A DNA stretch of 40,738 nt from Vampirovibrionia bacterium. GTDB lineage: Bacteria > Cyanobacteriota > Vampirovibrionia > LMEP-6097. The notes beneath the pieces are model-generated. The model was not told the origin of the DNA. It ran no database searches and worked only from the letters and a program-made list of their open reading frames with translations. Within the stretch, counting starts at the first letter, position 1; each line of letters starts with the position of its first letter. The stretch is taken from NCBI GenBank assembly GCA_049314535.1, contig JBMOEX010000002.1:1-40738 (forward strand), read 5' to 3'. Below, in pieces: positions 3,033-30,481 of the stretch. The position numbers and the translations under genes were made by a program.

Positions 3033-3078
3033 ACAATGCTATTTTAGACAATTCCAGTAAATGTTAAAATAAATCCCT

Positions 3079-7950: not shown

Positions 7951-7986
7951 ACGAATCTGCACTTTTCTTTGGCGCATATCTTATTT

Positions 7987-8820: not shown

Positions 8821-8892
8821 GATGCCTTTTATCTTAAATCATCATGTCTTATTTTGACAAGTTGTATTTTAAAAATTAATCAACAGGATTTC

Positions 8893-10077: not shown

Positions 10078-11514
10078 TTAATTAAGCCCTGCACCAAAAA
10101 CCGAAATCTTAGTGTTTAAAAGCTTCTTTATAACTTCATCCTTCAAATCCTCACCAATAAAGCCTTCCGCCTCTAAATCTTTTATCATCTTTAAAAATTT
10201 CTTACTGGTTTTTTTAGTAAGACTACTATCTATCAGAGTATTTTTTATCATCTCGATAGAACCTAGATCTATCGAATTAATTCCAGGTACAGCAGTACGA
10301 GTAACACTCAGCTTCTGCTTTTCACATATTTCTCTTAAAAATTTTACTTCAAGAGGAGTTACCACTGAAAAAGCATAACCCGACTTACCAGCTCTAGCAG
10401 TCCTACCAATACGATGCACATAATCCTCAGAATCCCGTGGCAGATTATAGTTTATAACAGCTTCTATATCATCTACATCTATACCTCGTGCTGCTATATC
10501 AGTAGCGATAAGAATCTGAGCCTCACCTTCTCTAAATTTACGCATTACAGCATCACGTTTATTCTGCTTTAAGTCACCATGTAAATTCGCTACACTGAAG
10601 CCCTCATCTTTAAGCGTATAGTAAAGTTTATCTACTTGCACCCTAGTATTACAAAAAATCATCACAGAACGCAGTCTGTATGAGAATAGTAAACGCTTAA
10701 TCAGTTCTATCTTTTGCTCAGCCTTAGTCTCGAAATATTTCTGATCTATTTTAATCTCTGTGACCTTCTTCTTAACTAAATTTAAAAATTCAGGTTTTTT
10801 CTGATGCTTATGAGCAAGCCTAACTATCTCCTGTGGCATAGTCGCAGAGAAGAGAGCTGTCTGTTCACGATTCTTAGTCGCATGTAAAATCGCTTCGATA
10901 TCATCTTTAAAACCCATTTCCAGCATCTTATCTGCTTCATCTAGAATCAAGGTTCTAACTGCTCTTAACTTTACAGTTCCTTGCTTAATATGATCTAATA
11001 GACGCCCAGGTGTAGCTACGATAATACGTGGCTGAGTTTTTAAAGTCTTAAGCTGTGCGTTCATACTCTGACCACCATATATAGCCATGCAAGAAACATC
11101 TTCACGGGACTGCTTGCAACCTTCAATTTCTGCGTTTTCGTCGTCCTCATGATCCTCATGTACCTTCAGTACACTGCGGTCATTCGTCCTTCTCAGCCTT
11201 GAACTTGTAAGTTTGCGAGCAGTCCTATGATATTTAAGCAGTAAATTAAAATGCTCGGCTACTTGAATAGTAAGCTCACGGGTAGGACATAGTACTAAAG
11301 CTTGAATATCTACTGTCTCTTTAATTATTCTCTCTATAACAGGTATCGCAAAAGCGGCTGTCTTACCAGTTCCAGTCTCAGCTTGAACTGTAATATCCTT
11401 CATTTTAAGCATTAATGGAATAGCTTTCTCTTGAACTGGTGTCATAGACTGGAACCCCATATCCCTTAATCCATTTAATGTAAGCTCAGAAAGATTTATT
11501 GCCTTGAAGTTCAT
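10078..11514 (-). CDS. DEAD-box ATP-dependent RNA helicase carrying an in-frame repeat-element insert
   Basis: Q-motif region, AETGTGKT (motif I), PTRELT (Ia), TPGRL (Ib), DEAD (II), SAT (III) and HRIGRTARAG (VI). About 40 extra residues lie between Ia and the GG doublet and are encoded by the repeat at 11107-11225. Confidence 0.9.
   Translation of the reverse strand: MNFKAINLSELTLNGLRDMGFQSMTPVQEKAIPLMLKMKDITVQAETGTGKTAAFAIPVIERIIKETVDIQALVLCPTRELTIQVAEHFNLLLKYHRTARKLTSSRLRRTNDRSVLKVHEDHEDDENAEIEGCKQSREDVSCMAIYGGQSMNAQLKTLKTQPRIIVATPGRLLDHIKQGTVKLRAVRTLILDEADKMLEMGFKDDIEAILHATKNREQTALFSATMPQEIVRLAHKHQKKPEFLNLVKKKVTEIKIDQKYFETKAEQKIELIKRLLFSYRLRSVMIFCNTRVQVDKLYYTLKDEGFSVANLHGDLKQNKRDAVMRKFREGEAQILIATDIAARGIDVDDIEAVINYNLPRDSEDYVHRIGRTARAGKSGYAFSVVTPLEVKFLREICEKQKLSVTRTAVPGINSIDLGSIEMIKNTLIDSSLTKKTSKKFLKMIKDLEAEGFIGEDLKDEVIKKLLNTKISVFGAGLN
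11107..11225 (-). repeat. full L+R palindromic repeat element (short form), in-frame inside the helicase CDS
   Basis: The core differs from the ribH copy at about 3-4 of about 87 positions by hand alignment. Arms are GGACTGCTTGCAA / TTTGCGAGCAGTCC. It encodes TARKLTSSRLRRTNDRSVLKVHEDHEDDENAEIEGCKQS. Confidence 0.85.
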
Positions 11515-11589
11515 TTAAACTATCATAGCTTGTTCTTTGCTTGGAGAAAAATAGAGCCCTGCTGTATCTCTATGTTAAAATCCTAAATG

Positions 11590-11680
11590 TTACTGGGGTG
11601 TTGAGAAATAACTTGACTGAGATCGTAGTAGGCTACGGGACCCTTATAACCTGATCTGGATAATGCCAGCGGAGGGAAAA
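11590..11680 (+). ncRNA. TPP (THI-box) riboswitch
   Basis: ACTGGGGTG...GACTGAGATCG...ACCCTTATAACCTGATCTGGATAATGCCAGCGGAGGGAA carries the conserved CUGAGA and ACCUGAUCUGGAUAAUGCCAGCG cores. It ends at the GGAGGG Shine-Dalgarno, 7 nt before the ATG at 11683. Confidence 0.85.
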
Positions 11681-11682
11681 TA

Positions 11683-12051
11683 ATGCTTGGACGAATTCTT
11701 AGTTTCTTGTCGCCGACTGTAAACTCGGCTCAACTTAATAAATTTGATGATCAACATGTTAATGCTGATATATGCTTGACTCCTATGGGTTCTTCGAATA
11801 CTTCAACTAGAGCCGAGATAAGAAAAGCTGTGGAAATAATGTCAAGAGCTGGTTTTGATGAAGTCAAACCACATGCTTTTGGAACTAATGTTTCAGGAAA
11901 ATGGTCTACTTTAGTAAGGTCTATAGAAAAAATTTCAGAGCAACTACTCCCTGAATGCCAAAGGCTACATTTTGATCTTAGAATTTCAGTAAGAGAGGAT
12001 AAACCTAAACATAGACAGACTATTGGACATACGATAGCAGCTGTGGCGTAA
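11683..12051 (+). CDS. YkoF/MTH1187-family (thiamine-binding, DUF77-like) protein
   Basis: It sits immediately downstream of the TPP riboswitch. The small protein has an ICLTPMG...AVEIMSRAGF...HAFGTNVSGKW pattern, like the V-x-P-x-G...G-T-x-x-E-G layout of the family. The assignment is partly by context. Confidence 0.55.
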   Translation: MLGRILSFLSPTVNSAQLNKFDDQHVNADICLTPMGSSNTSTRAEIRKAVEIMSRAGFDEVKPHAFGTNVSGKWSTLVRSIEKISEQLLPECQRLHFDLRISVREDKPKHRQTIGHTIAAVA

Positions 12052-12101
12052 CAGTCATTCATCCTCCTCAGCCTTGAACTTGCACCCTCGGCAACAGTGC
12101 C
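12052..12101 (-). repeat. solo R module of the repeat family, intergenic, starting 1 nt after the ykoF-like stop codon
   Basis: ACAGTCATTCATCCTCCTCAGCCTTGAACTTGCACCCTCGGCAACAGTGCC compared with canonical GCGGTCATTCGTCCTCCTCAGCCTTGAACTTGCACGTTCGCAAGCAGTGCC. Confidence 0.8.
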
Positions 12102-12142
12102 TTGAACAGTAGTTTCCAAGAAAGTAATATAATAAAGGCTGA

Positions 12143-12817
12143 ATGCTAAATTTAAAAAATAAATTAATCTATATCTTAGCTTTTAGCCTTTTTCTAGCTC
12201 TAAACACTACAGCAGCAGAGACTGTCACAGAGAAACTTTCAGCCACAGCCTCAAAAACCATTGATATCGCAGCAGAGCAGAAAAGAATACAGAATATGTT
12301 TAATGCTTTTATAACGACTATCGGTAAGTCACCTAAAGACTACACTATAGAAGTAGTCGAATCAAAAGATATAAATGCTTTCGCCACTTTAGGACGGCGC
12401 ATAGTGGTTAATACTGAATTAATTAAAACTGTAAATAGTGAATCAGCTTTAGCTATGGTTCTTGCCCATGAATTAGGTCACCTCGAAAGAAAACATTTAG
12501 TAAAAAGCCTTATAAGCCAGAACACTTCAGCCTTAATCAAGCACTATGTCTTTAAAGATAATCGTATCGTGAGTGCGATAAGCTATGCTGGTGGTCTGCA
12601 TTACAGCAGGGAGACAGAAAAAGACGCAGATATGTTCGGCATAAACTTAGTAAACAAGCTCTACTGTAATGTTCCAGGTAAGTTAGAGTTTTTTGAAAAG
12701 ATGTCTAAATTAGAGAATGCTGGGAAACTGCAAGAGTACTTTAGTACGCATCCGCTTTCTAGCAGTCGTATGGAATATCTTACTGCTGAGATTAAGGCTA
12801 AGGGGTGTCTTCTATAA
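12143..12817 (+). CDS. M48-family zinc metallopeptidase (exported)
   Basis: Signal-like N-terminus. HELGHLERKH is an HExxH motif, and a downstream EKDAD fits the third ligand region. Confidence 0.75.
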   Translation: MLNLKNKLIYILAFSLFLALNTTAAETVTEKLSATASKTIDIAAEQKRIQNMFNAFITTIGKSPKDYTIEVVESKDINAFATLGRRIVVNTELIKTVNSESALAMVLAHELGHLERKHLVKSLISQNTSALIKHYVFKDNRIVSAISYAGGLHYSRETEKDADMFGINLVNKLYCNVPGKLEFFEKMSKLENAGKLQEYFSTHPLSSSRMEYLTAEIKAKGCLL

Positions 12818-13462
12818 CCCCAAAACCTGCAAACAAGACAAAGCAAGCTCTTTACCCTTATCATCCTGAGTAACACTCGCTCTTGATAAAGCCTGCTCTT
12901 CAGTATTTACTGTAAGAACCCCATTAATAATCGGTTTCGAGTAATCTAACATCACGTCCATAATGCCTCTTGCTGACTCATTCGCCACTATCTCAAAATG
13001 ATAAGTTTCACCACGAATAATAGTTGCAAAGCAAATTATTGCATGATAACCAGTAAAACTATCATGAGACTGTTTCCAAACTACAATTTCTGCGTTTTCG
13101 TCGTCCTCATGATCCTCATGTACCTTCAGTACACTGCGGTCATTCGTCCTCCTCAGCCTTGAACTTGCACGCTTGGAAACAGTCTCATCATCTATATCAA
13201 GAATCTCATCCTCTAAATCCTTCTCAAAGAGCTTCTGGCAGGCATAAGGCATCTCAAAAGCACCAGGAGTGTAATAACTATCTATATTTTCAGCTCTAAT
13301 ACCAAATTTAATTAAAGTCTCTTTAGCTGAATCTGCCATTTCCTGGTTATAGCCTATATTCCAGTTAGCGATAACTAGAGCTATCCTGATATTCTCAAGA
13401 TAAAGGTTTTCAAGTATTTCTTCTAATTTAAATTCTGGTCTTGAGTGTCGCATATGATGCAT
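12812..13462 (-). CDS. ribH: 6,7-dimethyl-8-ribityllumazine synthase carrying an in-frame repeat-element insert
   Basis: IALVIANWN, PGAFEMPYA, IIRGETYHFEIVANE and NGVLTV match RibH. At 216 aa it is longer than the usual 155 or so, and the excess maps to the repeat at 13064-13188. Confidence 0.85.
   Translation of the reverse strand: MHHMRHSRPEFKLEEILENLYLENIRIALVIANWNIGYNQEMADSAKETLIKFGIRAENIDSYYTPGAFEMPYACQKLFEKDLEDEILDIDDETVSKRASSRLRRTNDRSVLKVHEDHEDDENAEIVVWKQSHDSFTGYHAIICFATIIRGETYHFEIVANESARGIMDVMLDYSKPIINGVLTVNTEEQALSRASVTQDDKGKELALSCLQVLGL
13064..13188 (-). repeat. full L+R palindromic repeat element (short form), in-frame inside ribH
   Basis: Perfect 16-nt inverted arms ATGAGACTGTTTCCAA / TTGGAAACAGTCTCAT flank the conserved core. 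It encodes ETVSKRASSRLRRTNDRSVLKVHEDHEDDENAEIVVWKQSH. Confidence 0.9.
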
Positions 13463-13468
13463 CCTAGC

Positions 13469-14860
13469 CTAAACGAACTCTCCACGCAAGGCCCAAGGAT
13501 TAGTCTTAGTAATCCTCACATCAGCAAAAGCTCCAATATATTTATCATGCAAAGCTGGATCACACTCTATGTTCACAGTTTTATTATTAAAAATTCTGCC
13601 CGTTAGCCTATCTGGGTTACGCACTGATTTACCCTCGACTAAGACTTTCTCTATCTTACCTACATACCTTAAAGCCTGTTTCTCAGCGACTTCCGTGCAA
13701 ATCGCATTTAAAAGTCTGATTCTTTCCTGCTTTTCAGCATGGGTAATATTATCTTCCCATTCAGCAGCTGGTGTAAATGGACGTTTAGAATAGATAGCAG
13801 TATTGCAGGCATCATAGCCCACTTCCTGAACGACTTTCACCGAATCCATAAACTGCTCATGAGTCTCACCAGGGAAGCCTACGATAATATCACCAGTAAT
13901 AGAAGCCTCTGGCATTAACTTACGAATATAATTCACTAGCTCCATATACCTAGCTACAGTATATCTACGAGCCATACGCTTAAGAACCTCATCATTACCA
14001 GCTTGTATCGGCACATGAAAATATTTAGAAACCTTAGGCAGCTCTGCTACTGTCTCTATAAGCTCATAGGTCATATCACAGGGGTGTGATGTTAAAAATT
14101 TAATTCGCTCAATACCATCTACCGTGTGAACTTCTCGCAGTAAGGCTGCTAGATTAGTCCCTATATCTAGGCCATAACCATCAACATTCTGCCCTAATAA
14201 TATAATCTCCTTAAAACCTTCAGCAGCTAAAGTCTGCACTTCAGATACTATATCGGCTGTAGATCTAGAACGCTGATCACCACGAGTTTTAGGCACTATA
14301 CAATAAGTACAGCGATAATTACAGCCATAGATAACATTCACCCAAGCGTAATATTTAGTTTTTCTAAAGATAGGAGTCTCTGGAATGTCGTCCGGCAACT
14401 CTTCCCAGATTTCAGCTACCTGAGGGCGGCTCGCATAGACACCTTTATTCTTAATAGCTGGCTCTACCCCATTTAAAAGATTAATCTGGTGCTTCGCTTC
14501 TGCCTCTAAAACTAAGTCTGGAAGACGATGTAAATTATGAGTACCGATAACTATATCAGCTGTTCTTACATCAGCAGCAAGTTTAGTCCCTTCCTGCTGT
14601 GGTACACAGCCGGCTAAAGCTATCATACTACCAGGCTTACGAGTTTTATCCCACTTGCCCATATAGCTTCGCATCTTATCTACAGCGTGTTCTCTGATAC
14701 TACAAGTATTTAGAATGGAAAGATCAGCTTCCATTCTATCTTCAGTTTGAACATAATCGATTTCATCTAAAAGCCCTAACATTCTTTCCGTGTCAGCGAC
14801 GTTCATTTGACAGCCTAGAGTCTCTATAAAAACTTTCTTTTTGGTTTTAGTAATCGACAT
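13469..14860 (-). CDS. miaB: tRNA-2-methylthio-N6-dimethylallyladenosine synthase
   Basis: N-terminal UPF0004 cysteines (GCQMN...C...GC), the radical-SAM box CNYRCTYCIVP and a C-terminal TRAM-like domain. Confidence 0.9.
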   Translation of the reverse strand: MSITKTKKKVFIETLGCQMNVADTERMLGLLDEIDYVQTEDRMEADLSILNTCSIREHAVDKMRSYMGKWDKTRKPGSMIALAGCVPQQEGTKLAADVRTADIVIGTHNLHRLPDLVLEAEAKHQINLLNGVEPAIKNKGVYASRPQVAEIWEELPDDIPETPIFRKTKYYAWVNVIYGCNYRCTYCIVPKTRGDQRSRSTADIVSEVQTLAAEGFKEIILLGQNVDGYGLDIGTNLAALLREVHTVDGIERIKFLTSHPCDMTYELIETVAELPKVSKYFHVPIQAGNDEVLKRMARRYTVARYMELVNYIRKLMPEASITGDIIVGFPGETHEQFMDSVKVVQEVGYDACNTAIYSKRPFTPAAEWEDNITHAEKQERIRLLNAICTEVAEKQALRYVGKIEKVLVEGKSVRNPDRLTGRIFNNKTVNIECDPALHDKYIGAFADVRITKTNPWALRGEFV

Positions 14861-14867
14861 TATTTAT

Positions 14868-17168
14868 TTAGACGAAAGTAGGTTCAAGAACTGGCTCTTT
14901 TTCAATCAACTGTACAGCTTGAATCGCAAGCTCCGTAATCTTTCTATCAAGACTACTAAGTTTAGATACCTGCTTGCACATATCAACAGTACGTCTCAGA
15001 GCTTTCAGAGCATCGCCATCATCTGCCCTATTAGAAGACATAAGCTCTTCCCAGCTTTGAGATTCCATCCACTTAGTAACTACAGCAGATACATCCATGT
15101 TTATATCAACAGGCTTCATTACTCTAAAATCACGCTGAACCTTCACTACACTTCTTGCGATATTTTTTAAATTCTCAAAAACCTCATAATTATCTGCCTG
15201 AGCCTTAAGACCGAAACTATCTCTAGAAGATCTTGATTCCACGACCACCGCAGATAGCAAACAAGCAAACTGAGTAACATCTAAATTTTTCACAAAATCT
15301 TTAGTTAAAACTTCAGTAATATATAAAGAGTTCTCAGAGCGAATCGCAGCACAGATTTTACCAAGTTCTGTAGGCTTATAATTACTATCTAAATATGCTT
15401 TCTCTTTTAAAAGCTCTGTAATATCTTGGAAATTCTGCCAGTAAGTCTCTTCTTTAGCCTTAAGAATCTGATTTAATTCTCTTATCTTTTTACGATAACG
15501 TCTTAAAGTAGAAAACTGCTTAGAACATGGCTTCTGTTTAGGACAGCCATTACAAGGGTAATTCTGAGCCTCTAGAGTTAATATCTCTAGAAGTTCCTCC
15601 ATCGCAGTAACATCTGGCGACATCTCTTCTTCTAGTTTTTTCTTACTCTTTCTCGTCTCATCAAGTTTATCTTGCATCGATCTATAATGCTGAAGATCCC
15701 CAATTTCACCTGGACACAGTGGTGTCTGCAAATCAAACTGCTTATTTTCAAGTAAACTCTTCTCAGCTAGTATCGGCTTAAGATCTCTTAGAATTAAAGA
15801 ATGACCAAAGCTTTTAAATATAAGTGCTTTTACCTCATCAAGAGAATGATTAGTGAGTAAGTTAAGAACCATCTCATAACTTGGTCTGAAATTACTTTCT
15901 ATGTCCTCAGCCTTAGAAACCGCTAAAGAAGCAGCATCCCCTGCTGTCTGATTACTGTTCTTAACAGTAATTACATAACCAACATCGTCCATACCTCTTC
16001 TACCAGCACGTCCAGACATTTGAAGAAACTCAGAAGCTTTCAGAGACCTGAATCCATGATCACCCATCTTCTCAAGACTACTAATAATAGTGGTTCTCGC
16101 TGGCATATTAATACCTGCTGCTAGTGTTTCAGTAGAGAAGACTATTTTAATAAGCCCTTTCGTAAATAAATCTTCGATTAATACTTTTAAAGCTGGTAAT
16201 AGACCTGAATGATGCGAAGCCACGCCTTTACGAATAAGATTTAAATGTGGGTAATTCGCTATAAAACTACTAGATTTAATCTGTTCATCTATGATTTTAT
16301 TTAATTCATCAGATTCTTTTTCAGTAAGTAACTTAAGCTCCTCACACTGCTTAGCGTAATTATCACAGCCTTTTCTACTAAAGACAAAATAAATAGCAGG
16401 TAGCATGCTCTTTTTAGCTAATTCTTCTACTACTAAATCTGGGGAAACTGGCTTACCAAAACCACCACCACGATGAGAGAATTTATGCTTAGAGCCAGAG
16501 CGATTATCATTCCTTTCTTTAAGCTTCGGATTTAACTTACCATTAGGGGTAATTAAAGGAAGAAGCTGCTCATCTTTAAAATAAAAATGATGCAGTGGCA
16601 CTGGTCTAAAATCAGTCTTAACTAGAGCGCACTCTCCATGCACATTAGAGATCCAGTCTCTAAGTTCTTCAGGATTATTAATAGTCGCAGATAAAGCAAT
16701 TAATTTAACTGATTTAGGGCTATATATTACACTTTCTTCCCAAACAGTTCCTCTTGACTCATCACCAATATAATGAAATTCATCAAAAATAACAAACTTT
16801 AAATCTTCAAGATAAGGATCTAAAGATCCAAATGTGGTGCCATAAAGCATATTACGGTAAATTTCATTCGTAAGAACCATAATCTGAGCATCTCTATTTT
16901 TAGAGGTATCGCCAGTAAGTATGCCAACCTTCTCAATTCCGTAATCTCTTTGAAATTCTAAAAATTTCTGATTAATTAAAGCCTTTAGAGGAGCTGTATA
17001 AAATACTTTTTTACCTTCCGCTATAGCCATCGCAATAGCCTCTGAGGCTATCGCTGTTTTACCTGCACCAGTAGGTGCACTAACGATTAAATTTTTTGAG
17101 TCCTTAATAAAAGCTATCGACTCTTCTTGAAAAGCATCAAGCTTGAACTTCGTCTTAGTTATTACCAT
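14868..17168 (-). CDS. Ski2-like DExH-box helicase (HelY-type)
   Basis: APTGAGKT, DEFHYIGDESRGTVWEE, SAT, and QMSGRAGRRGMDDVGY. Confidence 0.8.
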   Translation of the reverse strand: MVITKTKFKLDAFQEESIAFIKDSKNLIVSAPTGAGKTAIASEAIAMAIAEGKKVFYTAPLKALINQKFLEFQRDYGIEKVGILTGDTSKNRDAQIMVLTNEIYRNMLYGTTFGSLDPYLEDLKFVIFDEFHYIGDESRGTVWEESVIYSPKSVKLIALSATINNPEELRDWISNVHGECALVKTDFRPVPLHHFYFKDEQLLPLITPNGKLNPKLKERNDNRSGSKHKFSHRGGGFGKPVSPDLVVEELAKKSMLPAIYFVFSRKGCDNYAKQCEELKLLTEKESDELNKIIDEQIKSSSFIANYPHLNLIRKGVASHHSGLLPALKVLIEDLFTKGLIKIVFSTETLAAGINMPARTTIISSLEKMGDHGFRSLKASEFLQMSGRAGRRGMDDVGYVITVKNSNQTAGDAASLAVSKAEDIESNFRPSYEMVLNLLTNHSLDEVKALIFKSFGHSLILRDLKPILAEKSLLENKQFDLQTPLCPGEIGDLQHYRSMQDKLDETRKSKKKLEEEMSPDVTAMEELLEILTLEAQNYPCNGCPKQKPCSKQFSTLRRYRKKIRELNQILKAKEETYWQNFQDITELLKEKAYLDSNYKPTELGKICAAIRSENSLYITEVLTKDFVKNLDVTQFACLLSAVVVESRSSRDSFGLKAQADNYEVFENLKNIARSVVKVQRDFRVMKPVDINMDVSAVVTKWMESQSWEELMSSNRADDGDALKALRRTVDMCKQVSKLSSLDRKITELAIQAVQLIEKEPVLEPTFV

Positions 17169-17258
17169 TTAGCAAATCCAAATTCCTTGTATAAACACTA
17201 TTATTCATGTTTATTTTTAGCATGGATAATGAAAAAGAACTAACTAGTCAAGCTTTTT

Positions 17259-18011: not shown

Positions 18012-18095
18012 ATAAACACAATTATCTTACCATGTCAAAATGGTGCTAATTTCTTATACCCATAGAGACTGAAAATGACAGCAAAGGTTCCCAAT

Positions 18096-19424: not shown

Positions 19425-19474
19425 TAAGAACCAACGAAAGAAGTTAGATAATTAAAACTCTGAAGCTCTTAATA

Positions 19475-20368: not shown

Positions 20369-20391
20369 ACAGTCTAACTATTTTAGCTTAA

Positions 20392-20409
20392 TCAAGACCG
20401 ATGCACAAC
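20392..20409 (-). repeat. short dispersed motif (copy 2 of 3), 23 nt upstream of the atpG start codon
   Basis: TCAAGACCGATGCACAAC on the plus strand, which is GTTGTGCATCGGTCTTGA in the sense of the minus-strand genes. Confidence 0.5.
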
Positions 20410-20473
20410 TCCATGTTCTCTTCAACATTAAAACCGCAAACTCAAGATTAAGTCTCCATAAACTAAAATTAAG

Positions 20474-21394
20474 CTATGCTAACGCCCTTGATAAATAATT
20501 TTGATTAATCTTTAATAAATCAGTAGCAGACTCAAAATCTAATCCTTTCTTAAGATAAAGAACAGCCTGTTTAACTCTATTATTAGATAAAGCTAAAGCC
20601 TGCTCAGCTAAAGGCTTATCACAGTCCGTAATTAAGCTTACTAATCTAATAGCTCTCTCCTTGAGCTTTTTATTACTCACCTTAACATCTATCATTAGGT
20701 TACCAAAGGTTTTACCTAACTTAACCATAACTGAAGTACTTATAATATTAAGTACCATCTTCTGCGAGGTTCCAGCTTTAAGCCTAGTACTACCTGAAAG
20801 TATCTCAGGACCAGTATCTAAAAAAATAGAATAATCCGCATATTTAATAATCTCAGCTCCATGATTATTGGTCAGTACCGCTGTCTTAGCACCATATTCT
20901 CTCGCTGCTTTTAAAGCTCCTATAACATAAGCTGCTCCACCGCTAGCCGAAATACCGATAACCACATCATGGCACTGCTCACGAACTCCAATTTCTGCGT
21001 TTTCGCTACTCTTTAAATTCATCTTCGCTAAAACATCAGCATAACCAGCAGCTTCATCATCTTCGGCTCCTTCTACTGCATACTGGATGGCTCTTTCACC
21101 ACCAGCGATAATAGCTTTCACTAAATCTGGCTCAGTAGAAAAAGTAGGCGGACATTCTACTGCATCTAAAACACCAAGACGCCCACTAGTACCAGCTCCC
21201 ACATAAATCAATGATCCACCCTGTCTTAAAGATTCACTAACAACTTCGATGACCATTCCGATATCTTCTTTAACATCAGCAATGGCTTTTAAAATCTGTT
21301 GGTGATCATCCACAAAGAGCTGAACTAAATCAGAGGAGTTTAACTGATCTAAATTTTCAGAAAGTGGGTTTACCGATTCTGTTATGGGCAGCAT
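20474..21394 (-). CDS. murQ: N-acetylmuramic acid 6-phosphate etherase carrying a partial repeat insert
   Basis: SIS-domain motifs YVGAGTSGRLGVLDA, ECPPTF, VIGISASG and LSGSTRLKAGTSQK. About 12 extra residues (ENAEIGVREQCH) lie directly before DVVIGISASG. Confidence 0.85.
   Translation of the reverse strand: MLPITESVNPLSENLDQLNSSDLVQLFVDDHQQILKAIADVKEDIGMVIEVVSESLRQGGSLIYVGAGTSGRLGVLDAVECPPTFSTEPDLVKAIIAGGERAIQYAVEGAEDDEAAGYADVLAKMNLKSSENAEIGVREQCHDVVIGISASGGAAYVIGALKAAREYGAKTAVLTNNHGAEIIKYADYSIFLDTGPEILSGSTRLKAGTSQKMVLNIISTSVMVKLGKTFGNLMIDVKVSNKKLKERAIRLVSLITDCDKPLAEQALALSNNRVKQAVLYLKKGLDFESATDLLKINQNYLSRALA
20971..21005 (-). repeat. truncated L module of the repeat family, in-frame inside murQ
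   Basis: GGCACTGCTCACGAACTCCAATTTCTGCGTTTTCG matches the first 35 nt of the L module in the ABC ATPase gene with 1 mismatch. Confidence 0.8.
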
Positions 21395-22608
21395 TATTTA
21401 CACTCTCCTTGATACAGCAGACAAGACACCTTATGGCACTGCTCGCGAACTCCAATTTCTGCGTTTTCGTCGTCCTCATGATCCTCATGTAAGCTTGATA
21501 AATCAAGCTTGTATTTCTGCTTGCTCGGATATGAGCCACTTACATGGCTCGCATCCTCGGCATCGCTAGAAATTACCCGTACACTGCGGTCATTCGTCCT
21601 CCTCAGCCTTGAACTTGCACGTTCGCAAGCAGTGCCATTTTGGGGCTGCTCACGAGCTTCAATTTCTGCGTTTTCGTCGTCCTCATGATCCTCTAAAAGT
21701 GGATCATTGATCTCACAAGCCTCAAAGCATTCAGGACATCTAGTGCGGAAAGCACAACCACTCGGTATTTTAGTTGCACTGGGTATTTCACCATACAAAA
21801 AAGTACGCTCCCTATCACGCTTAGTCGGGTCTGGGAGTGGGGCTGAGCTTAAAAGAGCTTTAGTGTAAGGATGCAAAGGATTACGAAAGAGATCATCTTT
21901 AGCTGCTATTTCAACTATTTTTCCTAGATACATAACAGCTACTCTATCTGCGATAAACTTAGCCACGGCTAAATCATGAGTAATAAAAAGAAAACTAATA
22001 CCCAGCTCCCGCTTAAGCTTCAGCATTAAATTCAATATAGTCCACTGAATCGATACATCTAAAGCACTCACAGCTTCATCTGCAATAATCAATTTAGGAT
22101 TACAAGCTATCGCTCTAGCTATACAGACTCGCTGATTTTGTCCACCTGAACACTGATGTGGATATTTAGAAGCAAGCTCAGCATCAAGTTCAACAAGCTG
22201 CATAAGCTCAAATACTCTTTCTTTAATATTCTTTTCTTTATTTATTCTCAAGGGTTCAGCAATAGAATCAAAAATTTTAAAGCGAGGATCTAAGCTACTA
22301 AAAGGATTCTGGAAAATCATCTGTAAACTTTTTCTTTTATCTAAAAGCTTAGATCCATGAAGATGTAAAAAATCTTCACCTTCAAAATTAATCTCACCAG
22401 AGTCTGGCTCAGTGAGACGAGTTATAAGTCTTGCTAAAGTGGATTTACCGCAGCCAGATTCGCCTACCAAAACTAATATCTCAGCTTTATCAATAGATAA
22501 ATCCACTCCCCTCACGACTTGAAGAAGCTCTTTAGTCGCTAAGCCCCATCCCCCATCTTTTGAGATAGAAAAAGATTTAGATAAATTTTTAACCTCTAAT
22601 AAAGCCAC
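21394..22608 (-). CDS. ABC transporter ATP-binding protein, oligopeptide/dipeptide (OppF/DppF) type, with a composite repeat insert of about 85 aa near the C-terminus
   Basis: Walker A GESGCGKST, signature SGGQNQR, Walker B IIADEA, and the Opp-type C-terminal Cys motif CAFRTRCPECFEAC. The family-typical end H-x-V-x-C (HKVSCLLY) reappears after the insert. GTG start. The stop codon overlaps the murQ ATG (TAATG). Confidence 0.85.
   Translation of the reverse strand: MALLEVKNLSKSFSISKDGGWGLATKELLQVVRGVDLSIDKAEILVLVGESGCGKSTLARLITRLTEPDSGEINFEGEDFLHLHGSKLLDKRKSLQMIFQNPFSSLDPRFKIFDSIAEPLRINKEKNIKERVFELMQLVELDAELASKYPHQCSGGQNQRVCIARAIACNPKLIIADEAVSALDVSIQWTILNLMLKLKRELGISFLFITHDLAVAKFIADRVAVMYLGKIVEIAAKDDLFRNPLHPYTKALLSSAPLPDPTKRDRERTFLYGEIPSATKIPSGCAFRTRCPECFEACEINDPLLEDHEDDENAEIEAREQPQNGTACERASSRLRRTNDRSVRVISSDAEDASHVSGSYPSKQKYKLDLSSLHEDHEDDENAEIGVREQCHKVSCLLYQGECK
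21435..21636 (-). repeat. full L+R repeat element, long form (88-nt internal segment replaces the 7-nt joint)
   Basis: Arms GGCACTGCTCGCGAAC / GTTCGCAAGCAGTGCC (15/16). The ACTG...CAGT anchor span is 196 nt, against 115 nt in both short copies, a difference of 81 nt or 27 codons. Confidence 0.85.
21642..21693 (-). repeat. solo L module, 5 nt from the long element, in-frame in the same CDS
   Basis: GGGGCTGCTCACGAGCTTCAATTTCTGCGTTTTCGTCGTCCTCATGATCCTC. It encodes DHEDDENAEIEAREQP. Confidence 0.85.
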
Positions 22609-22628
22609 TATTTAAGAACATAACATAT

Positions 22629-22646
22629 TCAAGACCGCTGCACAAC
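22629..22646 (-). repeat. short dispersed motif (copy 3 of 3), 20 nt upstream of the ABC ATPase start codon
   Basis: TCAAGACCGCTGCACAAC on the plus strand. Confidence 0.5.
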
Positions 22647-22715
22647 GTGCGTTTTCAAGACTAGGAAGAACGATCAAAAATTAGAAGAAAGTTTTTTACA
22701 GATTAAAATGGTATT

Positions 22716-23633: not shown

Positions 23634-23655
23634 AAGATTACTAGCTTAAATCTGC

Positions 23656-25014: not shown

Positions 25015-25480
25015 TTACCTGAGCCATATTTAATATCTCATCCCATTCTTCTTTAGCGACTGGCTGCACTGATAGGCGAGAACCTTTCTGTACTAGCTTC
25101 ATATCTTTCAGTTTAGGATTAGCCTTTATCGCTTCAAGAGAAATAAAAGGTAAATCCTGAATGTGTTTTACATCTACTAACCACCAACGTGGATTATTTA
25201 TATCGCTCTGTGGATCATAATATTTAGATTTTTTATCAAACTGCGTAGGATCTGGATATGCTTCTTTAGTAACGACTTCCACTATGCCAATAACACCAGG
25301 TGGCTTAGCGTTACTGTGATAAAAAAATGCTTTATCGCCAGTCTTCATCTCCTTCATCATAATATTTCTAGCTTGATAGTTTCTAACACCATCCCACATA
25401 TCAGTTTTATTCGGGAGAGACTTTAAATCATCTATAGAAAAAGATGACGGTTCTGATTTTATAAGCCAGTAATTACTCAT
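24995..25480 (-). CDS. EVE domain protein
   Basis: YWLIKSEP...W.GVRNYQARN...GD.AFFYHS and a GVIGIVEVV core are characteristic of the EVE / PUA-like fold. Confidence 0.8.
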   Translation of the reverse strand: MSNYWLIKSEPSSFSIDDLKSLPNKTDMWDGVRNYQARNIMMKEMKTGDKAFFYHSNAKPPGVIGIVEVVTKEAYPDPTQFDKKSKYYDPQSDINNPRWWLVDVKHIQDLPFISLEAIKANPKLKDMKLVQKGSRLSVQPVAKEEWDEILNMAQVNAQYQQ

Positions 25481-25581
25481 AAATTAAATCTTAGCGAAAA
25501 GTGAAGAAATGCTTTTAAATTTTACAACTAAATCGTTTAAGGGCTTACAAAATAGACATAATTTACGCTAGTATATTATCC

Positions 25582-26640
25582 ATGCGTATTGGTGTACTTA
25601 CTGGCGGTGGTGATTGTCCGGGTTTAAATTCCGTGATAAGAGCTTTAGTTTTTAAATCTGTTAAAGAATATGGATCAGAGGTGATCGGTATTAAATATGG
25701 CTGGAAAGGTGCAGTGGAGAACATTACCACTGAACTTAGCTTAGATAAGACAGAAGATATAATCAGAGAAGGTGGAACTATCCTTAAATCTTCAAGAACT
25801 AATCCTTTCAAGATAGAAGGTGGTCCTGAAGCAGTAATTAAGACCATGAAGGATAATAAATTAGACGCTCTAGTAGCCATAGGCGGCGAAGATACTTGTG
25901 GCGTAGCTTCTAAACTTTATAATCAATATAAAATAAATGTTATCGGCGTACCGAAGACTATAGATAATGACTTATCTGGTACTGATGTAACTTTTGGCTT
26001 TGATACTTGTATCAATATCGTTACAGATGCTATAGATTCTCTGCACACTACAGCTTGCTCTCATGAACGCGTTCTAGTCTGTGAAGTTATGGGCAGGCAC
26101 GCTGGCTGGATAGCTTCTTTCTCTGGTATTTCAGGGAATGCTGATTATATATTAGTTCCAGAAGAGGAAGTGGACACGAAAGAACTCTGTGAAACTATTA
26201 AAAAAGTTTATGCGAAAAAATCCTACGCAATAATCGTCGCAGCAGAGGGAGCTAAACTTTCTAATCAAGACGTAACAAAAGACACTGAGTTAGATGCTTT
26301 CGGCCACGTTAAGCTAGGTGGTATCGGTGAAAAGATCGCTAAAATTATTGAAAAAGAAACTGGTATAGAAACTAGATCTACGACTTTAGGACACATCCAA
26401 AGAGGCGGTAGACCATCGGCTTTCGATAGAGTATTAGGTACTAGACTTGGCTGGAAAGCTGCTGAGATGGTGCAGAATGGCGAATGGGGTAAAATGTCTG
26501 CGATAGTAGGCAATAAGACTGAAGCGGTATCTCTTAATGAAGCTGTTGGTTCATTAAAGACTCTAGAACTGTCTATCCATGAAGACTCTAAATTATTCTT
26601 TGGTACAGAGACTGATAAACAGTTAGCTAAATCTCATTAG
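25582..26640 (+). CDS. pfp: 6-phosphofructokinase, predicted pyrophosphate-dependent
   Basis: GVLTGGGDCPGLN, IGGEDT (Asp where E. coli PfkA has Gly104), PKTIDND (Lys where PfkA has Gly124), and MGRHAGW. Confidence 0.8.
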   Translation: MRIGVLTGGGDCPGLNSVIRALVFKSVKEYGSEVIGIKYGWKGAVENITTELSLDKTEDIIREGGTILKSSRTNPFKIEGGPEAVIKTMKDNKLDALVAIGGEDTCGVASKLYNQYKINVIGVPKTIDNDLSGTDVTFGFDTCINIVTDAIDSLHTTACSHERVLVCEVMGRHAGWIASFSGISGNADYILVPEEEVDTKELCETIKKVYAKKSYAIIVAAEGAKLSNQDVTKDTELDAFGHVKLGGIGEKIAKIIEKETGIETRSTTLGHIQRGGRPSAFDRVLGTRLGWKAAEMVQNGEWGKMSAIVGNKTEAVSLNEAVGSLKTLELSIHEDSKLFFGTETDKQLAKSH

Positions 26641-26685
26641 TTAAAAGATATTAGATCGGATTAAAGTTTCAAGAGAGATACTAAA

Positions 26686-27939
26686 GTGCTTAAAGATAAA
26701 ACTACGGTTCTTAAATTCGGGGGGAGTTCTGTTGCTAACGCAGACTGTATTAAAAAAGTCTGTGAGATAGCTATTCGCGAGAGTGAAAACGCGAATCTGG
26801 TCATAGTCGTCTCTGCCATGGGCAAAGCTACTGATTCCTTAGTTAAATTAGCGAAAGAATTTAATCCTCTACCAGAAGGGCGAGAGCTTGATATGCTTCT
26901 GTCGACCGGTGAGCAGGTCACTGTTTCCTTAGTCGCGATGTGCTTACATCAAATGGGCTTTAAGGCTATATCACTAGTAGCTTCACAGGCTGGCTTCATC
27001 ACAGAAAGAGCACATAATCGTGCAAGAATCGCTCAGATTAAGACAGATAGAATAGAGAAGCATTTAAATCTTGGAGAAATCGTTATAGTAGCTGGTTTTC
27101 AAGGTATCACAGAAGATGGTGAAATAACTACTCTTGGTAGAGGCGGCTCAGATACATCTGCTGTAGCGATAGCTGCTGCTTTGAAAGCTGAAAGATGTGA
27201 TATCTACACGGACGTAGAAGGCGTTTACACTACTGACCCTCGTATAATTCCAGAAGCCAGAAGATTAGATCTTATAAGCTATGAAGAGATGCTAGAACTT
27301 GCTAGCCTTGGAGCTAAAGTCTTACACCCGCGTTCGGTAGAATTAGCTAAAAAATATAATATAAATCTAAGAGTAAGAAGTACTTTCAAGCCAGATGACT
27401 TAGGTACTAGAGTAGTTAAATTAAGTGAGGTAAGAAATATGGAATTAACCCAAGCTGTGACTGGAGTTGCGATAGATGATAAACAAGCTAAATTAGGTTT
27501 TATGGGGGTACCAGATGAACCAGGTATAGCCTGTAAGATCTTCGATAGACTAGCGAAAGAGAATGTGAGCATAGATGTTATTCTCCAATCCATTCCTAGA
27601 GACGGAGTTATAGATATAGCTTTCACCGTGCAACAAGATTATTTACAAAAAGCTGTAAGGATCGCAGAAGAGCTAGCAGTAGAAGTCGGAGCAGATAAAA
27701 TAGTTTTCGATGAAAATATCGCAAAGGTATCTATAGTCGGAGCGGGAATGCTTAATAAGCCTGGTATAGCAGCTGAAATGTTCTCATCTCTATATAATGC
27801 TGGTATTAATATACAGATGATTACTACTAGTGAAATTAAGATCAGTTGTATTATCAGAATCGAAGAAAGTCAGAAAGCTGTTAAAGCGATACATGATCAG
27901 TTTAATCTAGCTTATTCTAAAGAAGAAATTATTGTATAG
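26686..27939 (+). CDS. lysC: aspartate kinase
   Basis: VLKFGGSSV, GRGGSDTSAVAIAAAL, VYTTDPR, and C-terminal tandem ACT regions. GTG start. Confidence 0.9.
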   Translation: MLKDKTTVLKFGGSSVANADCIKKVCEIAIRESENANLVIVVSAMGKATDSLVKLAKEFNPLPEGRELDMLLSTGEQVTVSLVAMCLHQMGFKAISLVASQAGFITERAHNRARIAQIKTDRIEKHLNLGEIVIVAGFQGITEDGEITTLGRGGSDTSAVAIAAALKAERCDIYTDVEGVYTTDPRIIPEARRLDLISYEEMLELASLGAKVLHPRSVELAKKYNINLRVRSTFKPDDLGTRVVKLSEVRNMELTQAVTGVAIDDKQAKLGFMGVPDEPGIACKIFDRLAKENVSIDVILQSIPRDGVIDIAFTVQQDYLQKAVRIAEELAVEVGADKIVFDENIAKVSIVGAGMLNKPGIAAEMFSSLYNAGINIQMITTSEIKISCIIRIEESQKAVKAIHDQFNLAYSKEEIIV

Positions 27940-27996
27940 TTTTAAAATCCCTATTAATAAAATCCTTCAAGAAATTAATAAGAAGAAAGAGAGAAT

Positions 27997-28476
27997 ATGA
28001 GCACAATCGAATCAAGCACTGAAAATCAAGTTATCAAGATGGATATACAGGATATATTCAATACATTACCCCATAAATATCCTTTCTTAATGGTGGATAG
28101 AGTCACTGAGTGCTTAGCTGGCGAATACGCTAAAGGTTATAAGAATATTTCTGTAAATGAACCTCAATTTCAAGGACACTTTCCAGATGTGTCTATTATG
28201 CCAGGAGTATTACAGCTCGAAGCATTAGCTCAAATGTGCTGCATATGCATGCTTCACGTGAAAGATTATTCCGTCGGTTATAAAGGAATATTTACTGGAC
28301 TAGATCAGATTAGATTTAGAAAAATCGTAGTTCCAGGAGATAGATTAGATATAGAAGTAAAGAAAATAAAGTTTAGATTTCCTTTCGGGAAATTTGAAGT
28401 AAAAGCGACAGTAGATGGTGAAGAAAGCTGCTCTGGAGTACTTTCTTTTGCCATGATAAAAAATACTGAGCTATAA
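27997..28476 (+). CDS. fabZ: 3-hydroxyacyl-ACP dehydratase
   Basis: LPHKYPFLMVDRV, FQGHFPD.SIMPGVLQLEALAQ and a hotdog-fold C-terminus. Confidence 0.9.
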   Translation: MSTIESSTENQVIKMDIQDIFNTLPHKYPFLMVDRVTECLAGEYAKGYKNISVNEPQFQGHFPDVSIMPGVLQLEALAQMCCICMLHVKDYSVGYKGIFTGLDQIRFRKIVVPGDRLDIEVKKIKFRFPFGKFEVKATVDGEESCSGVLSFAMIKNTEL

Positions 28477-28486
28477 ATCCGATTAT

Positions 28487-29932
28487 ATGAATTCAAGTTA
28501 TAATGTTAAGGCAATGAATTCTAAAGCAGTTGACCTAAATTTACTATCTACTTTCCATCCTAGAGAGACTTTTGCACAAAGATCAGCATTAGTTCAGGCT
28601 TTCAAGTTTTTTATTCTAGCTGTAGTTTGGTTATCGATTATCTTCGTCGTAGCAGCTGGTGCTGGACTAACTTTCGCATGGAAAGCACCTTTCGTATTTA
28701 ACGAACTGATGCCGACTTGGTTTCCTGCTATAGATAAACAGATATTTAAAAACCTAGCTGATATTCACGCATATCTAGCTCCTACTGTGGTAGTAGCGAC
28801 TATTATTCCCGTAAATGCACTGTTCATGGTGCTTTGTGAAAGGAAATTCCTATCTTTACTCACTGTAAGAATCGGACCAGATGCCGTTGGACCAAATGGT
28901 GGACTGCAAACACTAGCTGATGCTTTAAAGCTTCTTTTTAAAGAAGATACTGTACCTAAGAATTCAGATCCTATTCTGTTCTTCTTAGCTCCAGCATTAT
29001 TCTTCGCCCCTTCCATGGTGGTTTTCTTACCTTTACTAGCTGTAGCAGCCAATCGCCTAGGCGGTTTCATCTATGCCGATCTTGATATTAGCTTGATATT
29101 CATATTAGGTTTTCTATCACTTGGCACTATGTCACTAGTTATGGCTGGCTGGGCATCTAATAATAAATATTCACTCATGGGTGGTCTAAGAGCCGCTTCT
29201 CAAGCTATTAGCTATGAAATCCCATTAGTACTCGCCATTATCTCTGTCATTATGCTCTCTGGCTCAGTGAATCTTTTCGAAATATCTGAAGCTCAAGCTG
29301 GTGGAATACTTAACTGGAACCTTCTGGGTAACGGGGAACTACCAAGAATCTTAAATCTGTTTGCTAGCACTAATGGTAATTTCTTTGATGGTTTCGTGAC
29401 TTTAGTTTACATAACACTGTGCGTTAGCTTATTTTTAATCTTCATTACCGCTTCCACGGCAGAGGTTAACAGAATTCCTTTCGACATCCCAGAAGCTGAG
29501 TCAGAGTTGGTTTCAGGGTTTAACACTGAGTTTAGCGGCATGAAATTCGCATTATTTTTCTTAGCTGAATATACTAATCTGTTTATCGCTTCAGCTATAG
29601 CTTCTATATTATTTCTTGGTGGTTCACATCTACCGATTAGCATAGAAGCAGAACAGGCGCTTTACTCAGCTCTTACGAATCTAAATATTAGCCTCCCTGT
29701 TATTGGCACCTTTAATGGTATGTTCGAAGGCTTAAATTTCGTCTGGGTAATAACATCAGTAACTCTCTTAGTGAAGATCTATCTTATGTTCCTTGTCGCT
29801 ATCTGGGTTAGAGCTACTCTACCAAGACTGAGACAGGATCAATTAATGGAGTTTGGTTGGAAATACCTTATTCCTCTTACGCTTGCCATTCTGTTCCTTA
29901 TGGCTATAATTTTGGAGTATATTAAATCATGA
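28487..29932 (+). CDS. nuoH: NADH-quinone oxidoreductase subunit H (NuoH/NdhA) with an N-terminal extension of about 90 aa
   Basis: ERKFLSLLTVRIGPDAVGPNGGLQTLADALKLLFKED, SNNKYSLMGGLRAASQAISYEIP, and RIPFDIPEAESELVSGFNTEFSG. The start may lie further downstream. Confidence 0.85.
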   Translation: MNSSYNVKAMNSKAVDLNLLSTFHPRETFAQRSALVQAFKFFILAVVWLSIIFVVAAGAGLTFAWKAPFVFNELMPTWFPAIDKQIFKNLADIHAYLAPTVVVATIIPVNALFMVLCERKFLSLLTVRIGPDAVGPNGGLQTLADALKLLFKEDTVPKNSDPILFFLAPALFFAPSMVVFLPLLAVAANRLGGFIYADLDISLIFILGFLSLGTMSLVMAGWASNNKYSLMGGLRAASQAISYEIPLVLAIISVIMLSGSVNLFEISEAQAGGILNWNLLGNGELPRILNLFASTNGNFFDGFVTLVYITLCVSLFLIFITASTAEVNRIPFDIPEAESELVSGFNTEFSGMKFALFFLAEYTNLFIASAIASILFLGGSHLPISIEAEQALYSALTNLNISLPVIGTFNGMFEGLNFVWVITSVTLLVKIYLMFLVAIWVRATLPRLRQDQLMEFGWKYLIPLTLAILFLMAIILEYIKS

Positions 29933-30435
29933 ATTTCATAAGTACCTTAAAATCATTCACTAAATTCCCTCTTGGAATCTATAACATTCTTCTAGGTATG
30001 TTTACAGTAGTGAAACACACTACTAGAGATCCGATTACCTCTGACTATCCTAATAAGATGCCAGAACTCTATCCTAGATCAAGACACAGGCTAGCTTTAA
30101 ACGTAGACCCCATTACAGGTGAGCATCTATGTATCGCCTGCAAGCAATGCGAAAGAGTCTGCCCTGATGCTTGTATTTCAGTTATCCCGCATACCGAGGT
30201 GAAAGCGAAATCTACACAGTTTTATATAGATCACGGTCTATGTATGTTCTGTGGTCTATGTACAGAAGTCTGTCCTACTGACTGTATTATTAACACCGTA
30301 GATTTTGAGATGTCAACAGAAACAAGAGAAGATCTAATCTATGATATTAAAAAATTAACCCTCACTCAAGAGCAGTCTAGAGAATACTTTAAGATGAAAG
30401 GGTATACACCTAAACCTAAGAAAGCTGCTGCTTAA
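29929..30435 (+). CDS. nuoI: NADH-quinone oxidoreductase subunit I (2x[4Fe-4S])
   Basis: Two ferredoxin motifs, CIACKQCERVCP and CMFCGLCTEVCP. There is a 4-nt overlap with nuoH. Confidence 0.85.
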   Translation: MNFISTLKSFTKFPLGIYNILLGMFTVVKHTTRDPITSDYPNKMPELYPRSRHRLALNVDPITGEHLCIACKQCERVCPDACISVIPHTEVKAKSTQFYIDHGLCMFCGLCTEVCPTDCIINTVDFEMSTETREDLIYDIKKLTLTQEQSREYFKMKGYTPKPKKAAA

Positions 30436-30436
30436 G

Positions 30437-30481
30437 GGGACACGACGAAAACGCAGAAATTCGAGCTTGTGAGCAGTCCCC
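30437..30481 (+). repeat. solo L module of the repeat family in inverted orientation, filling the gap between two convergent stop codons
   Basis: The reverse complement GGGGACTGCTCACAAGCTCGAATTTCTGCGTTTTCGTCGT matches the L module. The flanks GCTTAAGGGGAC / GTCCCCTAAGC are complementary (one bulge) and include both stop codons. Confidence 0.8.

Follow-up and report, generated by a model that had tools for sequence, protein, structure and literature searches.

A probable new family of miniature transposable elements, read in frame within housekeeping genes of a Vampirovibrionia bacterium

A 40,738-nucleotide stretch of contig JBMOEX010000002.1 from a Vampirovibrionia bacterium, referred to here as the window, contains copies and fragments of a short palindromic repeat, several of them read in frame within housekeeping genes. 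Our analyses indicate that this repeat probably constitutes a new family of non-autonomous DNA transposons, i.e., transposable elements of the miniature inverted-repeat kind (MITEs), that behaves like the Rickettsia palindromic elements (RPEs) and occurs in a new phylum. The repeat family with its inverted repeats, a 5-bp target-site duplication, empty orthologous sites, the statistics of the reading frame, a series of decaying copies and the host clade can all be read directly from the sequences compared. A search with nhmmer retrieved 233 copies or fragments in about 0.77 Mb, which comprised the window and 103 loci from five species-level Melainabacteria metagenome-assembled genomes (MAGs) among the matches listed. 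An earlier note made from the window alone had described six loci carrying the repeat, composed of L and R halves.

In an alignment of 76 distinct full copies from six genomes, the complete element is an imperfect palindrome of 121 nt that starts with GGG and ends with CCC. Read in the coding orientation, it begins with a 5' stem arm of 16 nt, after which come the R' arm (CAAGTTCAAGGCTGAGGAGGACGAATGACCGCAGTG), a central stem, the L' arm (CATGAGGATCATGAGGACGACGAAAACGCAGAAATTGGAG) and, last, the 3' stem arm; the central hairpin closes a loop of about 5 nt with a 5-bp stem. An inverted repeat of about 16 bp forms the outer stem, with a conserved tip, GGSACYG, and a middle part that is variable yet complementary. 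It is followed by an inner conserved pair, CAAGTTC/GAAATTG; the inverted repeat measures roughly 16-27 bp. The R' and L' arms are purine-rich, nearly invariant and related to each other as direct repeats; pairwise identity amounts to 94% in the arms, 75% in the centre and 65% in the stems. Throughout the alignment, 92% of the outer 16-bp stem is paired, with two-sided changes in 15 of its 16 pairs, and for the outer and central stems together 94% of cells pair and 17 of 21 pairs show two-sided changes. Cells changed on both sides number 229, compared with 59 in column shuffles, and none of 500 shuffles reached the observed values. The stems fall into four subfamilies (GGGACTGCTCRCAA, GGCACTGTTGCCGAAC, GGGCGTGTAGCCAAAC and GAGACCGCTGCACAAC), each present in most species, and variants of the central hairpin are shared among them, resulting in a mosaic pattern. 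In a long form of about 200 nt, the central hairpin encloses a conserved structured module of about 85 nt, here called M, with covarying stems of its own; all 25 copies of M that were found lie within L/R context. A seemingly unique 86-nt stretch in the ABC ATPase gene of the window is in fact this third conserved module. At another locus (L001, 219-455), the central hairpin of one copy is occupied by a palindromic insert of another kind, about 160 nt long (GGATCCGCTGAAAAATGCTG...GGGGAGCGGATCC), suggesting that other small elements can land in the central loop.

In 17 of 78 full copies, the pentamer preceding GGG is identical to the one that follows CCC (permutation mean 1.0, maximum 4), and in 35 of the 78 at least four of the five bases match, where 6.6 would be expected. 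The duplicated pentamers are diverse and A/T-rich (ATGAT, AATTA, ATTAT, ATTTA, TTGAA, AAGAT, CTAAA and others). Empty sites were found in relatives: in ribH of the window the 121-nt element stands between two ATCAT copies, and at the same site L074 reads uninterrupted (ATCATCAT); similarly, L098 carries the element between two ATTAT copies, and the orthologous site of L101 has a single ATCAT. The MITE-like character proposed earlier is hence borne out by terminal inverted repeats, target-site duplication and empty orthologous sites. The insert in the DEAD-box helicase is missing from the orthologues in L074 and L105 (89% amino acid identity), L106 (75%) and L107 (54%), from which it follows that it was gained in the lineage of the window. 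Other orthologous sites at about 90% identity differ as full and empty, as full and L-only fragment, or as short and long form. For the two window insertions, duplications of 2 bp (AT) or 4 bp (TCAT) had also been considered, but the test across the family settled on 5 bp.

A fixed staggered duplication is a hallmark of DDE-type transposition, whereas Y1/HUH single-strand and rolling-circle elements leave no duplication. The fixed 5-bp duplication thus argues against Y1/HUH single-strand, rolling-circle and retro-elements, and by analogy with known systems a DDE-type transposase may act on the element in trans. A retro-type origin of the 5'-truncated L fragments was discarded, as in the cases examined orthologous full copies showed in-situ microhomology deletions. 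Phage carriage was likewise rejected, the single IMG/VR match being syntenic with a MAG contig. This entry (L104, IMGVR_UViG_3300042866_002883), filed as viral, is collinear with MAG locus L082 over 7.7 kb at 88-94% identity and contains three fragments of the element; the contig is part of a prophage or else bacterial and wrongly classified.

Inside genes, the element follows a strict frame rule. Of 106 copies set at least 90 nt deep in a long open reading frame (ORF) on either side, 102 have the same orientation and phase, and intergenic copies between co-directional genes run in the same direction in 17 cases and in the opposite direction in 17. The census of frame and orientation thereby extends to the whole family the one-frame, RPE-like behaviour that the earlier note had described for four coding loci. 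Of the six frames, only two are usually open: the coding frame, free of stops in 63 of 76 copies, and one antisense frame, free of them in 52 of 76. Stop codons in the coding frame occur in 9 of 30 intergenic copies versus 1 of 33 intragenic ones. Element and duplication together add 121 + 5 = 126 nt, i.e., 42 codons, and insertion therefore never shifts the frame. As intergenic copies occur in either orientation and with stop codons, the frame rule must act as a selection filter and not as targeting. Insertion itself is orientation-blind, and selection retains those in-gene copies that add a charged peptide; it probably also rejects the antisense peptide with its Cys, Pro and hydrophobic residues. 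The one-frame rule hence stands within ORFs, but it is no insertion specificity and arises from the frame-neutral length plus selection.

The only open frame of the element encodes a highly charged read-through peptide of 40 residues. In an AlphaFold model of the window's RibH, the host fold has confidence values (pLDDT, predicted local distance difference test) above 90 on both sides of the insert. Residues 86-134, which make up the insert, are modelled as a low-confidence loop (pLDDT below 50) that connects helix 68-80 to strand 141-149. Among the hosts in related genomes are RadA, FtsQ and PyrK as well as a periplasmic binding protein, a polyprenyl synthase (IspA) and an M17 aminopeptidase (PepA), and some host genes there carry two or three copies. 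A proteome-wide search with the 41-residue peptide returned only small ORFs called on intergenic copies. In public MAG annotations, such intergenic copies are called as 'hypothetical proteins' of 42-71 residues (P0001-P0048), which is a systematic annotation artefact for the clade.

The L and R halves, taken for independent modules in the earlier note, turned out to be deletion remnants of full copies when orthologues were compared. L-only fragments arise in place by in-frame deletions of 99 and 90 nt at ACGA/GA microhomologies, and ribH orthologues carry the full insert, L' remnants (ENAEIGVW(K/E)QSH) or an empty site. Since full and L-only copies occupy orthologous sites, the halves are decay products and not autonomous modules. 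In about 40% of cases, a full copy is immediately preceded by the 3' part of a second copy belonging to the same stem subfamily; such adjoining copies are tandem arrays shaped by unequal recombination. The ABC ATPase copy is long in the window but short in L103, with stems that differ yet remain complementary and with conserved flanks, which amounts to replacement of the whole copy. Fragments diverge at a flank-like rate: the remnant at 12052-12105 differs from its orthologue in L074 at 13 of 84 positions versus 38 of 370 in the flanks, and the remnant at 20971-21005 also has an orthologous remnant, in L103. In orthologous full copies, outer stems differ by 4.5% and the central hairpin by 15%, mostly through wholesale swaps.

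Two further loci are of note here. In L040 (2246-2753, in a QueE-like ORF at 2357-3154), 414 nt of ordinary host coding sequence separate an R-like remnant (..GTSSRRRRTNEQSF..) from an L-like one (..GENAENVLSQRSS..); these may be two independent remnants or one split copy. In one lake population (GROS21 samples), two contigs of 99.7% identity, L185 (15409-15466) and L186 (15393-15623), differ in the convergent gap between rplT and dnaG, where one haplotype has a bidirectional intrinsic terminator (A9-GACCAGC..GCTGGTC-T9) and the other a long-form copy. This pair was dropped as a case of insertion within a population, as it represents an allele replacement and not a clean insertion.

We propose the following course of events. 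Insertion duplicates an A/T-rich target of 5 bp, probably by means of a DDE-type transposase supplied in trans. Insertions into surface loops of proteins in the one stop-free frame (..SSRLRRTNDRSV..HEDHEDDENAEI..) survive and would be translated as a flexible loop, and in-gene insertions in other orientations or frames are removed by selection. Copies subsequently decay through in-frame microhomology deletions, which leave the 'L' and 'R' halves, form tandem arrays, and are probably overwritten or homogenised by recombination with other copies.

Several points weigh against this scheme. The window, the 103 loci (731 kb) and the indels between close relatives yielded neither an autonomous element nor a transposase with matching ends, and we therefore only infer mobilisation in trans. 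Clustering of ORFs of at least 120 residues over the 731 kb gave AAA-ATPase families only and no transposase, in line with the transposase-free window of the earlier note. Matching stem pairs spaced 0.26-5 kb apart were only separate copies flanking housekeeping genes, and the 1-1.8 kb indels between the window and L105 held no transposase-like ORF, as judged by eye from translations only. The interior, at 94% identity, is far better conserved than the inverted repeats at 65%, which is odd for a MITE. Moreover, the arms of orthologous full copies differ at 7 of 648 positions (1.1%) versus about 10-14% in the flanks, i.e., they change roughly ten times more slowly, even in intergenic DNA. The duplication around the DEAD-box copy is degraded, with a net gain of 123 nt and not 126. 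On the side of the data, picking the loci with a 20-mer from the L arm biases both their copy densities and their L:R fragment ratio, ORF context was assigned by a stop-to-stop heuristic and not by gene calls, and translation of an in-gene insert as an extra loop of about 42 residues is predicted from the open frame.

Neutral decay of selfish copies does not predict such slow arms, and either gene conversion or a function is therefore needed. Frequent gene conversion among copies probably homogenises the arms, as supported by the mosaics and swaps, and gene conversion combined with cis-requirements for transposition most likely explains the conservation pattern. Alternatively, the element could primarily be a structured RNA or single-stranded DNA that has its own function, its arms being kept by selection at each locus and mobility being secondary. 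We consider this unlikely, as we do the roles it might have, for instance as a transposase's guide or partner RNA, as a rod that binds protein, as a terminator or as an mRNA-stabilising hairpin. In its favour, the core is near-invariant while the outer, central and M stems covary, and orthologous intergenic cores show 0-2 differences per 72 nt versus 6-22% in flanks. The hairpin folds on both strands, with z = -8.5 for the purine-rich (coding) strand and z = -4.5 for the other relative to shuffles. The purine-rich strand folds better because its arms pair in register, G-C pairs alternating with tandem G.A/A.G pairs, and a rod can form in which four such tandem pairs are bracketed by G-C. The long-form copy in place of a bidirectional terminator hairpin in the alternative haplotype of the lake population would also fit, and so would the excess of intergenic copies at convergent (23) over divergent gene ends (11). 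However, no Rfam family matched the two copies scanned even at E <= 10, counts of G.U and A.C in the stems (53 versus 34) give no clear strand signal, and intergenic copies lie in either orientation relative to transcription. Hundreds of copies in unrelated coding sequences are hard to square with a host function, and mosaic hairpins and whole-copy replacement indicate that recombination can homogenise cores without selection. It is improbable that the element is a functional folded nucleic acid, be it the cis-acting partner, or an RNA or single-stranded DNA cofactor, of an undescribed transposition system that recognises the tandem-G.A rod or a hairpin co-opted by the host, which may replace terminators and add a common charged loop to many proteins.

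Its overall hairpin shape, stems that need only pair while the unpaired parts are conserved, the high copy number and the lack of a linked transposase would also agree with a hairpin moving as single-stranded DNA by a Y1/HUH transposase, in the manner of REP/REPIN-RAYT or IS200/IS605-TnpA. IS200/IS605 and REP/RAYT elements make no duplication and insert beside a specific tetra- or pentanucleotide. The copies described here are flanked by a fixed 5-bp duplication of diverse, A/T-rich pentamers and have no conserved REP head of the GTAG/CGTC type, and we thus judge this route very unlikely. Even less probable is a protein module, i.e., a peptide domain of 41 residues that selection for some common role (tag, binding motif or charged hairpin, for example) spread among proteins, with DNA identity as a by-product, although it would account for the 102 of 106 ORF copies in one frame and orientation, the conserved peptide SSRLRRTNDRSV..HEDHEDDENAEI and the avoidance of stop codons in genes only. 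Nucleotide identity extends to synonymous sites (94% in the core), copies decay to remnants of varied length, and the peptide is predicted to be disordered and has no Pfam or NCBIfam domain match; the many intergenic copies, in both orientations and with stop codons, together with the target-site duplications around copies, largely refute it. Finally, all sequences stem from metagenomes and assemblers are known to be misled by repeats, so that chimeric junctions from assembly or binning had to be considered. This has next to no probability: the insertions are found again, together with their flanks, in independent assemblies, the family occurs in five independent MAGs and in metagenomes, partly at orthologous positions, reading frames are open across all junctions, and orthologous full copies, remnants and empty sites form a coherent series. 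A non-autonomous transposon therefore remains the reading that we prefer.

How this family relates to described systems can be outlined as follows. RPEs are palindromic and inserted in frame into unrelated genes (Ogata et al. 2000, summarised in PMC10969869). The present element resembles them as a short palindromic repeat in the range of about 100-150 bp without a transposase gene, with many in-frame insertions in unrelated housekeeping genes as well as intergenic copies, each copy encoding a conserved peptide that is compatible with the host fold. In contrast to RPEs, its carriers among the matches listed are Melainabacteria/Caenarcaniphilales and not Rickettsiales, and it shows a clear 5-bp duplication and a frame-neutral length of 121 + 5 = 126 nt, an invariant interior with covarying stems and a nested central module, and a higher local density (9 modules in 40.7 kb). 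Its peptide had no Pfam or NCBIfam match at E <= 10, which is a weak test for a difference from RPEs, as it was not checked whether these libraries hold RPE models.

With MITEs in general, the element shares small size, terminal inverted repeats, a fixed 5-bp duplication, dispersed copies, presence/absence polymorphism and the lack of a transposase ORF. Bacterial MITEs such as Correia, ERIC, BOX, Nezha and cyanobacterial ones likewise produce occasional in-frame fusions (PMC10969869, PMC11602168). In typical MITEs, however, the inverted repeats are best conserved and the core is variable, which is reversed here; in addition, a far higher fraction of copies lies inside ORFs, and no cognate insertion sequence was found. 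A 2024 survey of prokaryote MITEs does not mention Melainabacteria and gives a maximum density of 123 per Mb, in Wolbachia; comparison with the window is rough because definitions differ. TIMEs, Tn3-derived miniature elements, have 5-bp A/T-rich direct repeats (AAATT, AATAT, AACAT), conserved Tn3-type inverted repeats of about 38-40 bp and a poorly conserved core (PMC4133298). Our element is similar in its 5-bp A/T-rich duplication and its G-rich termini (GGG/GGGG), but differs in its inverted repeat of about 16-27 bp with a variable middle (65%), in its invariant core and in the absence of a Tn3-type inner end. Comparison with the inverted repeats of Tn3 and Tn21 likewise suggests a difference, and no Tn3-family transposase was found in the sequences covered. 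REP/REPIN and IS200/IS605-derived elements are also hairpins of about 100 nt with very high copy number, mobilised in trans and persisting in their hosts over long times; unlike the largely intragenic element with its 5-bp duplication, they are extragenic and lack a target duplication. PARCEL elements are tandem amphipathic repeats of 25 residues in ORFs of unknown function, whereas the units described here are dispersed, charged, 42 codons long and inserted in known enzymes.

As the earlier note had supposed, the element could not be assigned to any named family. Rfam 15 gave only a TPP (thiamine pyrophosphate) riboswitch in the window at gathering thresholds and only chance matches for two copies at E <= 10, the peptide search in Pfam and NCBIfam was equally empty, and a literature search for such repeats in Melainabacteria found none. 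A ribozyme or other known non-coding RNA was accordingly rejected, the Rfam scans yielding nothing meaningful and a by-eye resemblance to a hammerhead core being unsupported.

The copies in the window are summarised in Table 1. With a profile built from the two best copies, nhmmer re-found the repeat at every locus named in the earlier note, whose list had missed only the degenerate R-half fragment; the listed window copies have E-values of 1e-46 to 1e-5, and the value for that fragment is given in the table. In total, the window holds 3 full copies and 9 modules per 40.7 kb. Between the two short full copies, about 4 core positions differ, close to what had been noted before. The core is 94% identical in nucleotides whether it lies in unrelated genes or between genes, which makes the repeat duplicated DNA and not protein homology. 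All four loci in coding sequences translate in one frame (..SSRLRRTNDRSV(L/S)..HEDHEDDENAEI..). Pfam identifies their hosts as a DEAD-box helicase, a lumazine synthase, a SIS/MurQ-like protein and an oligopeptide-type ABC ATPase, and in the helicase and the lumazine synthase the insert splits the domain match in two. The L-half fragment and the long-form copy in the ABC ATPase together represent the common tandem layout of an L' fragment followed by a full copy. In the internally deleted copy, the stem tip GGGGAC is fused to ..ACGACGAAAACGCAGAAATT.. and the 3' stem arm.

Table 1. Copies, fragments and associated features of the element in the window.
Feature	Position	Strand	Context
Full short form, 121 nt	11106-11226	-	DEAD-box helicase ORF 10078-11514 (minus), in frame as RTARKLTSSRLRRTNDRSVLKVHEDHEDDENAEIEGCKQSR
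R-half remnant with outer stem arm	12052-12105	-	Intergenic, directly after stop codon of thiamine-binding-protein gene
Full short form, 121 nt	13066-13186	-	Lumazine synthase (ribH) ORF 12812-13462 (minus)
Perfect target-site duplication ATCAT	13061-13065 and 13187-13191	+	Around the ribH copy
Host-insert junction peptide ..IDDETVSKRASSRLRR..			RibH
L-half remnant (outer stem arm and L-arm end)	20971-21005	-	SIS/MurQ-like gene, in frame, ..ENAEIGVREQCH..
Long form: L arm, central module M, R arm; 16-bp outer stem	21435-21636	-	C-terminus of ABC/oligopeptide ATPase ORF 21394-22608
Module M of the long form, 93 nt, two hairpins of its own	~21490-21581	-	Within the long form
L-half fragment	21642-21693	-	C-terminus of ABC ATPase, directly upstream (coding sense) of the long-form copy
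Degenerate R-half fragment, subfamily D stem arm AGACCGCTGCACAAC; E = 0.03	22631-22673	+	Intergenic, upstream of ABC ATPase gene
Internally deleted copy	30436-30481	+	Between convergent nuoI-like gene and ORF 30481-31596

Other features of the window were recorded alongside. The TPP riboswitch (RF00059, 67.9 bits) at 11584-11696 (+) lies directly upstream of the YkoF-like PF01910 thiamine-binding-protein gene at 11683-12051, and the gene adjoining ribH encodes a MiaB-like radical SAM enzyme. A 910-residue ORF at 31698-34430 (-) contains tandem repeats of about 117 nt (39 codons) with roughly 60-80% identity at 31778-32600; it carries ankyrin repeats (PF12796) C-terminally, and its 39-residue repeat unit has no Pfam name.

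In a scan of one genome per species, the 20-mer from the L arm, AATTTCTGCGTTTTCGTCGT, was matched in more than 103 eight-kb blocks. Carriers among the matches listed are five MAGs labelled Melainabacteria, Caenarcaniphilales or Cyanobacteria and one labelled 'Proteobacteria'; a match in Oceanobacillus, the sole listed one outside MAGs of the clade, is due to chance. Accessions of these MAGs include DUDT01, JBJTTW01, JAGWWP01, CANHDW01 and RFQS01. The family is also present in several metagenome assemblies. The window runs collinear with L074, L103 and L105, sharing about 90% DNA identity with them, and on the strength of this synteny the host can be placed in a freshwater lineage of non-photosynthetic cyanobacteria (Caenarcaniphilales; Melainabacteria/Vampirovibrionia) and not in the Rickettsiales. 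In this group, the insertions have often hit essential genes. The G+C content of the element is 51.6% versus 36.8% for the window. The MAG labelled 'Proteobacteria bacterium' (WB4_1_1465, RFQS01; loci L013, L015 and L063) is syntenic with Caenarcaniphilales MAGs at about 90-96% identity, and its label is probably wrong.

Between the window and L105 (about 90% identity), gene content differs at window positions 7942-8903, 1113-1118 and 14860-14862. A 277-residue ORF at 7987-8820 occurs in the window and not in L105, and L105 carries an additional 588-residue ORF, by impression a putative PLP (pyridoxal phosphate)-dependent decarboxylase, and a 258-residue ORF. Two multi-copy ATPase gene families of about 390-420 and about 537 residues recur in L013, L038, L041, L051, L086 and other loci. 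By eye, they presumably resemble the AAA DUF4143 type and the AAA-ATPase-like/PD-(D/E)XK type. The element sits inside some of these genes as well.

Massive in-frame colonisation of housekeeping genes by a selfish repeat was essentially confined to Rickettsia in the literature searched, where it was seen 25 years ago. The practical consequences concern MAG annotation, as copies split Pfam domain matches and create spurious 'hypothetical proteins', and lake time series, in which copies are usable as strain markers. The reversed conservation, with an invariant core and covarying repeats, together with the missing transposase points to intense gene conversion or an unknown mode of recognition. 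The family also offers a mechanistic rule: element plus duplication make up whole codons, one open frame is hydrophilic, and selection completes the filter. Inserts of about 42 residues in RadA, FtsQ, RibH, DEAD-box helicases, PyrK, IspA and PepA, present at all stages of decay, amount to a natural experiment in protein tolerance. An independent case in another phylum, with free-living or predatory relatives, suggests that the phenomenon is general.

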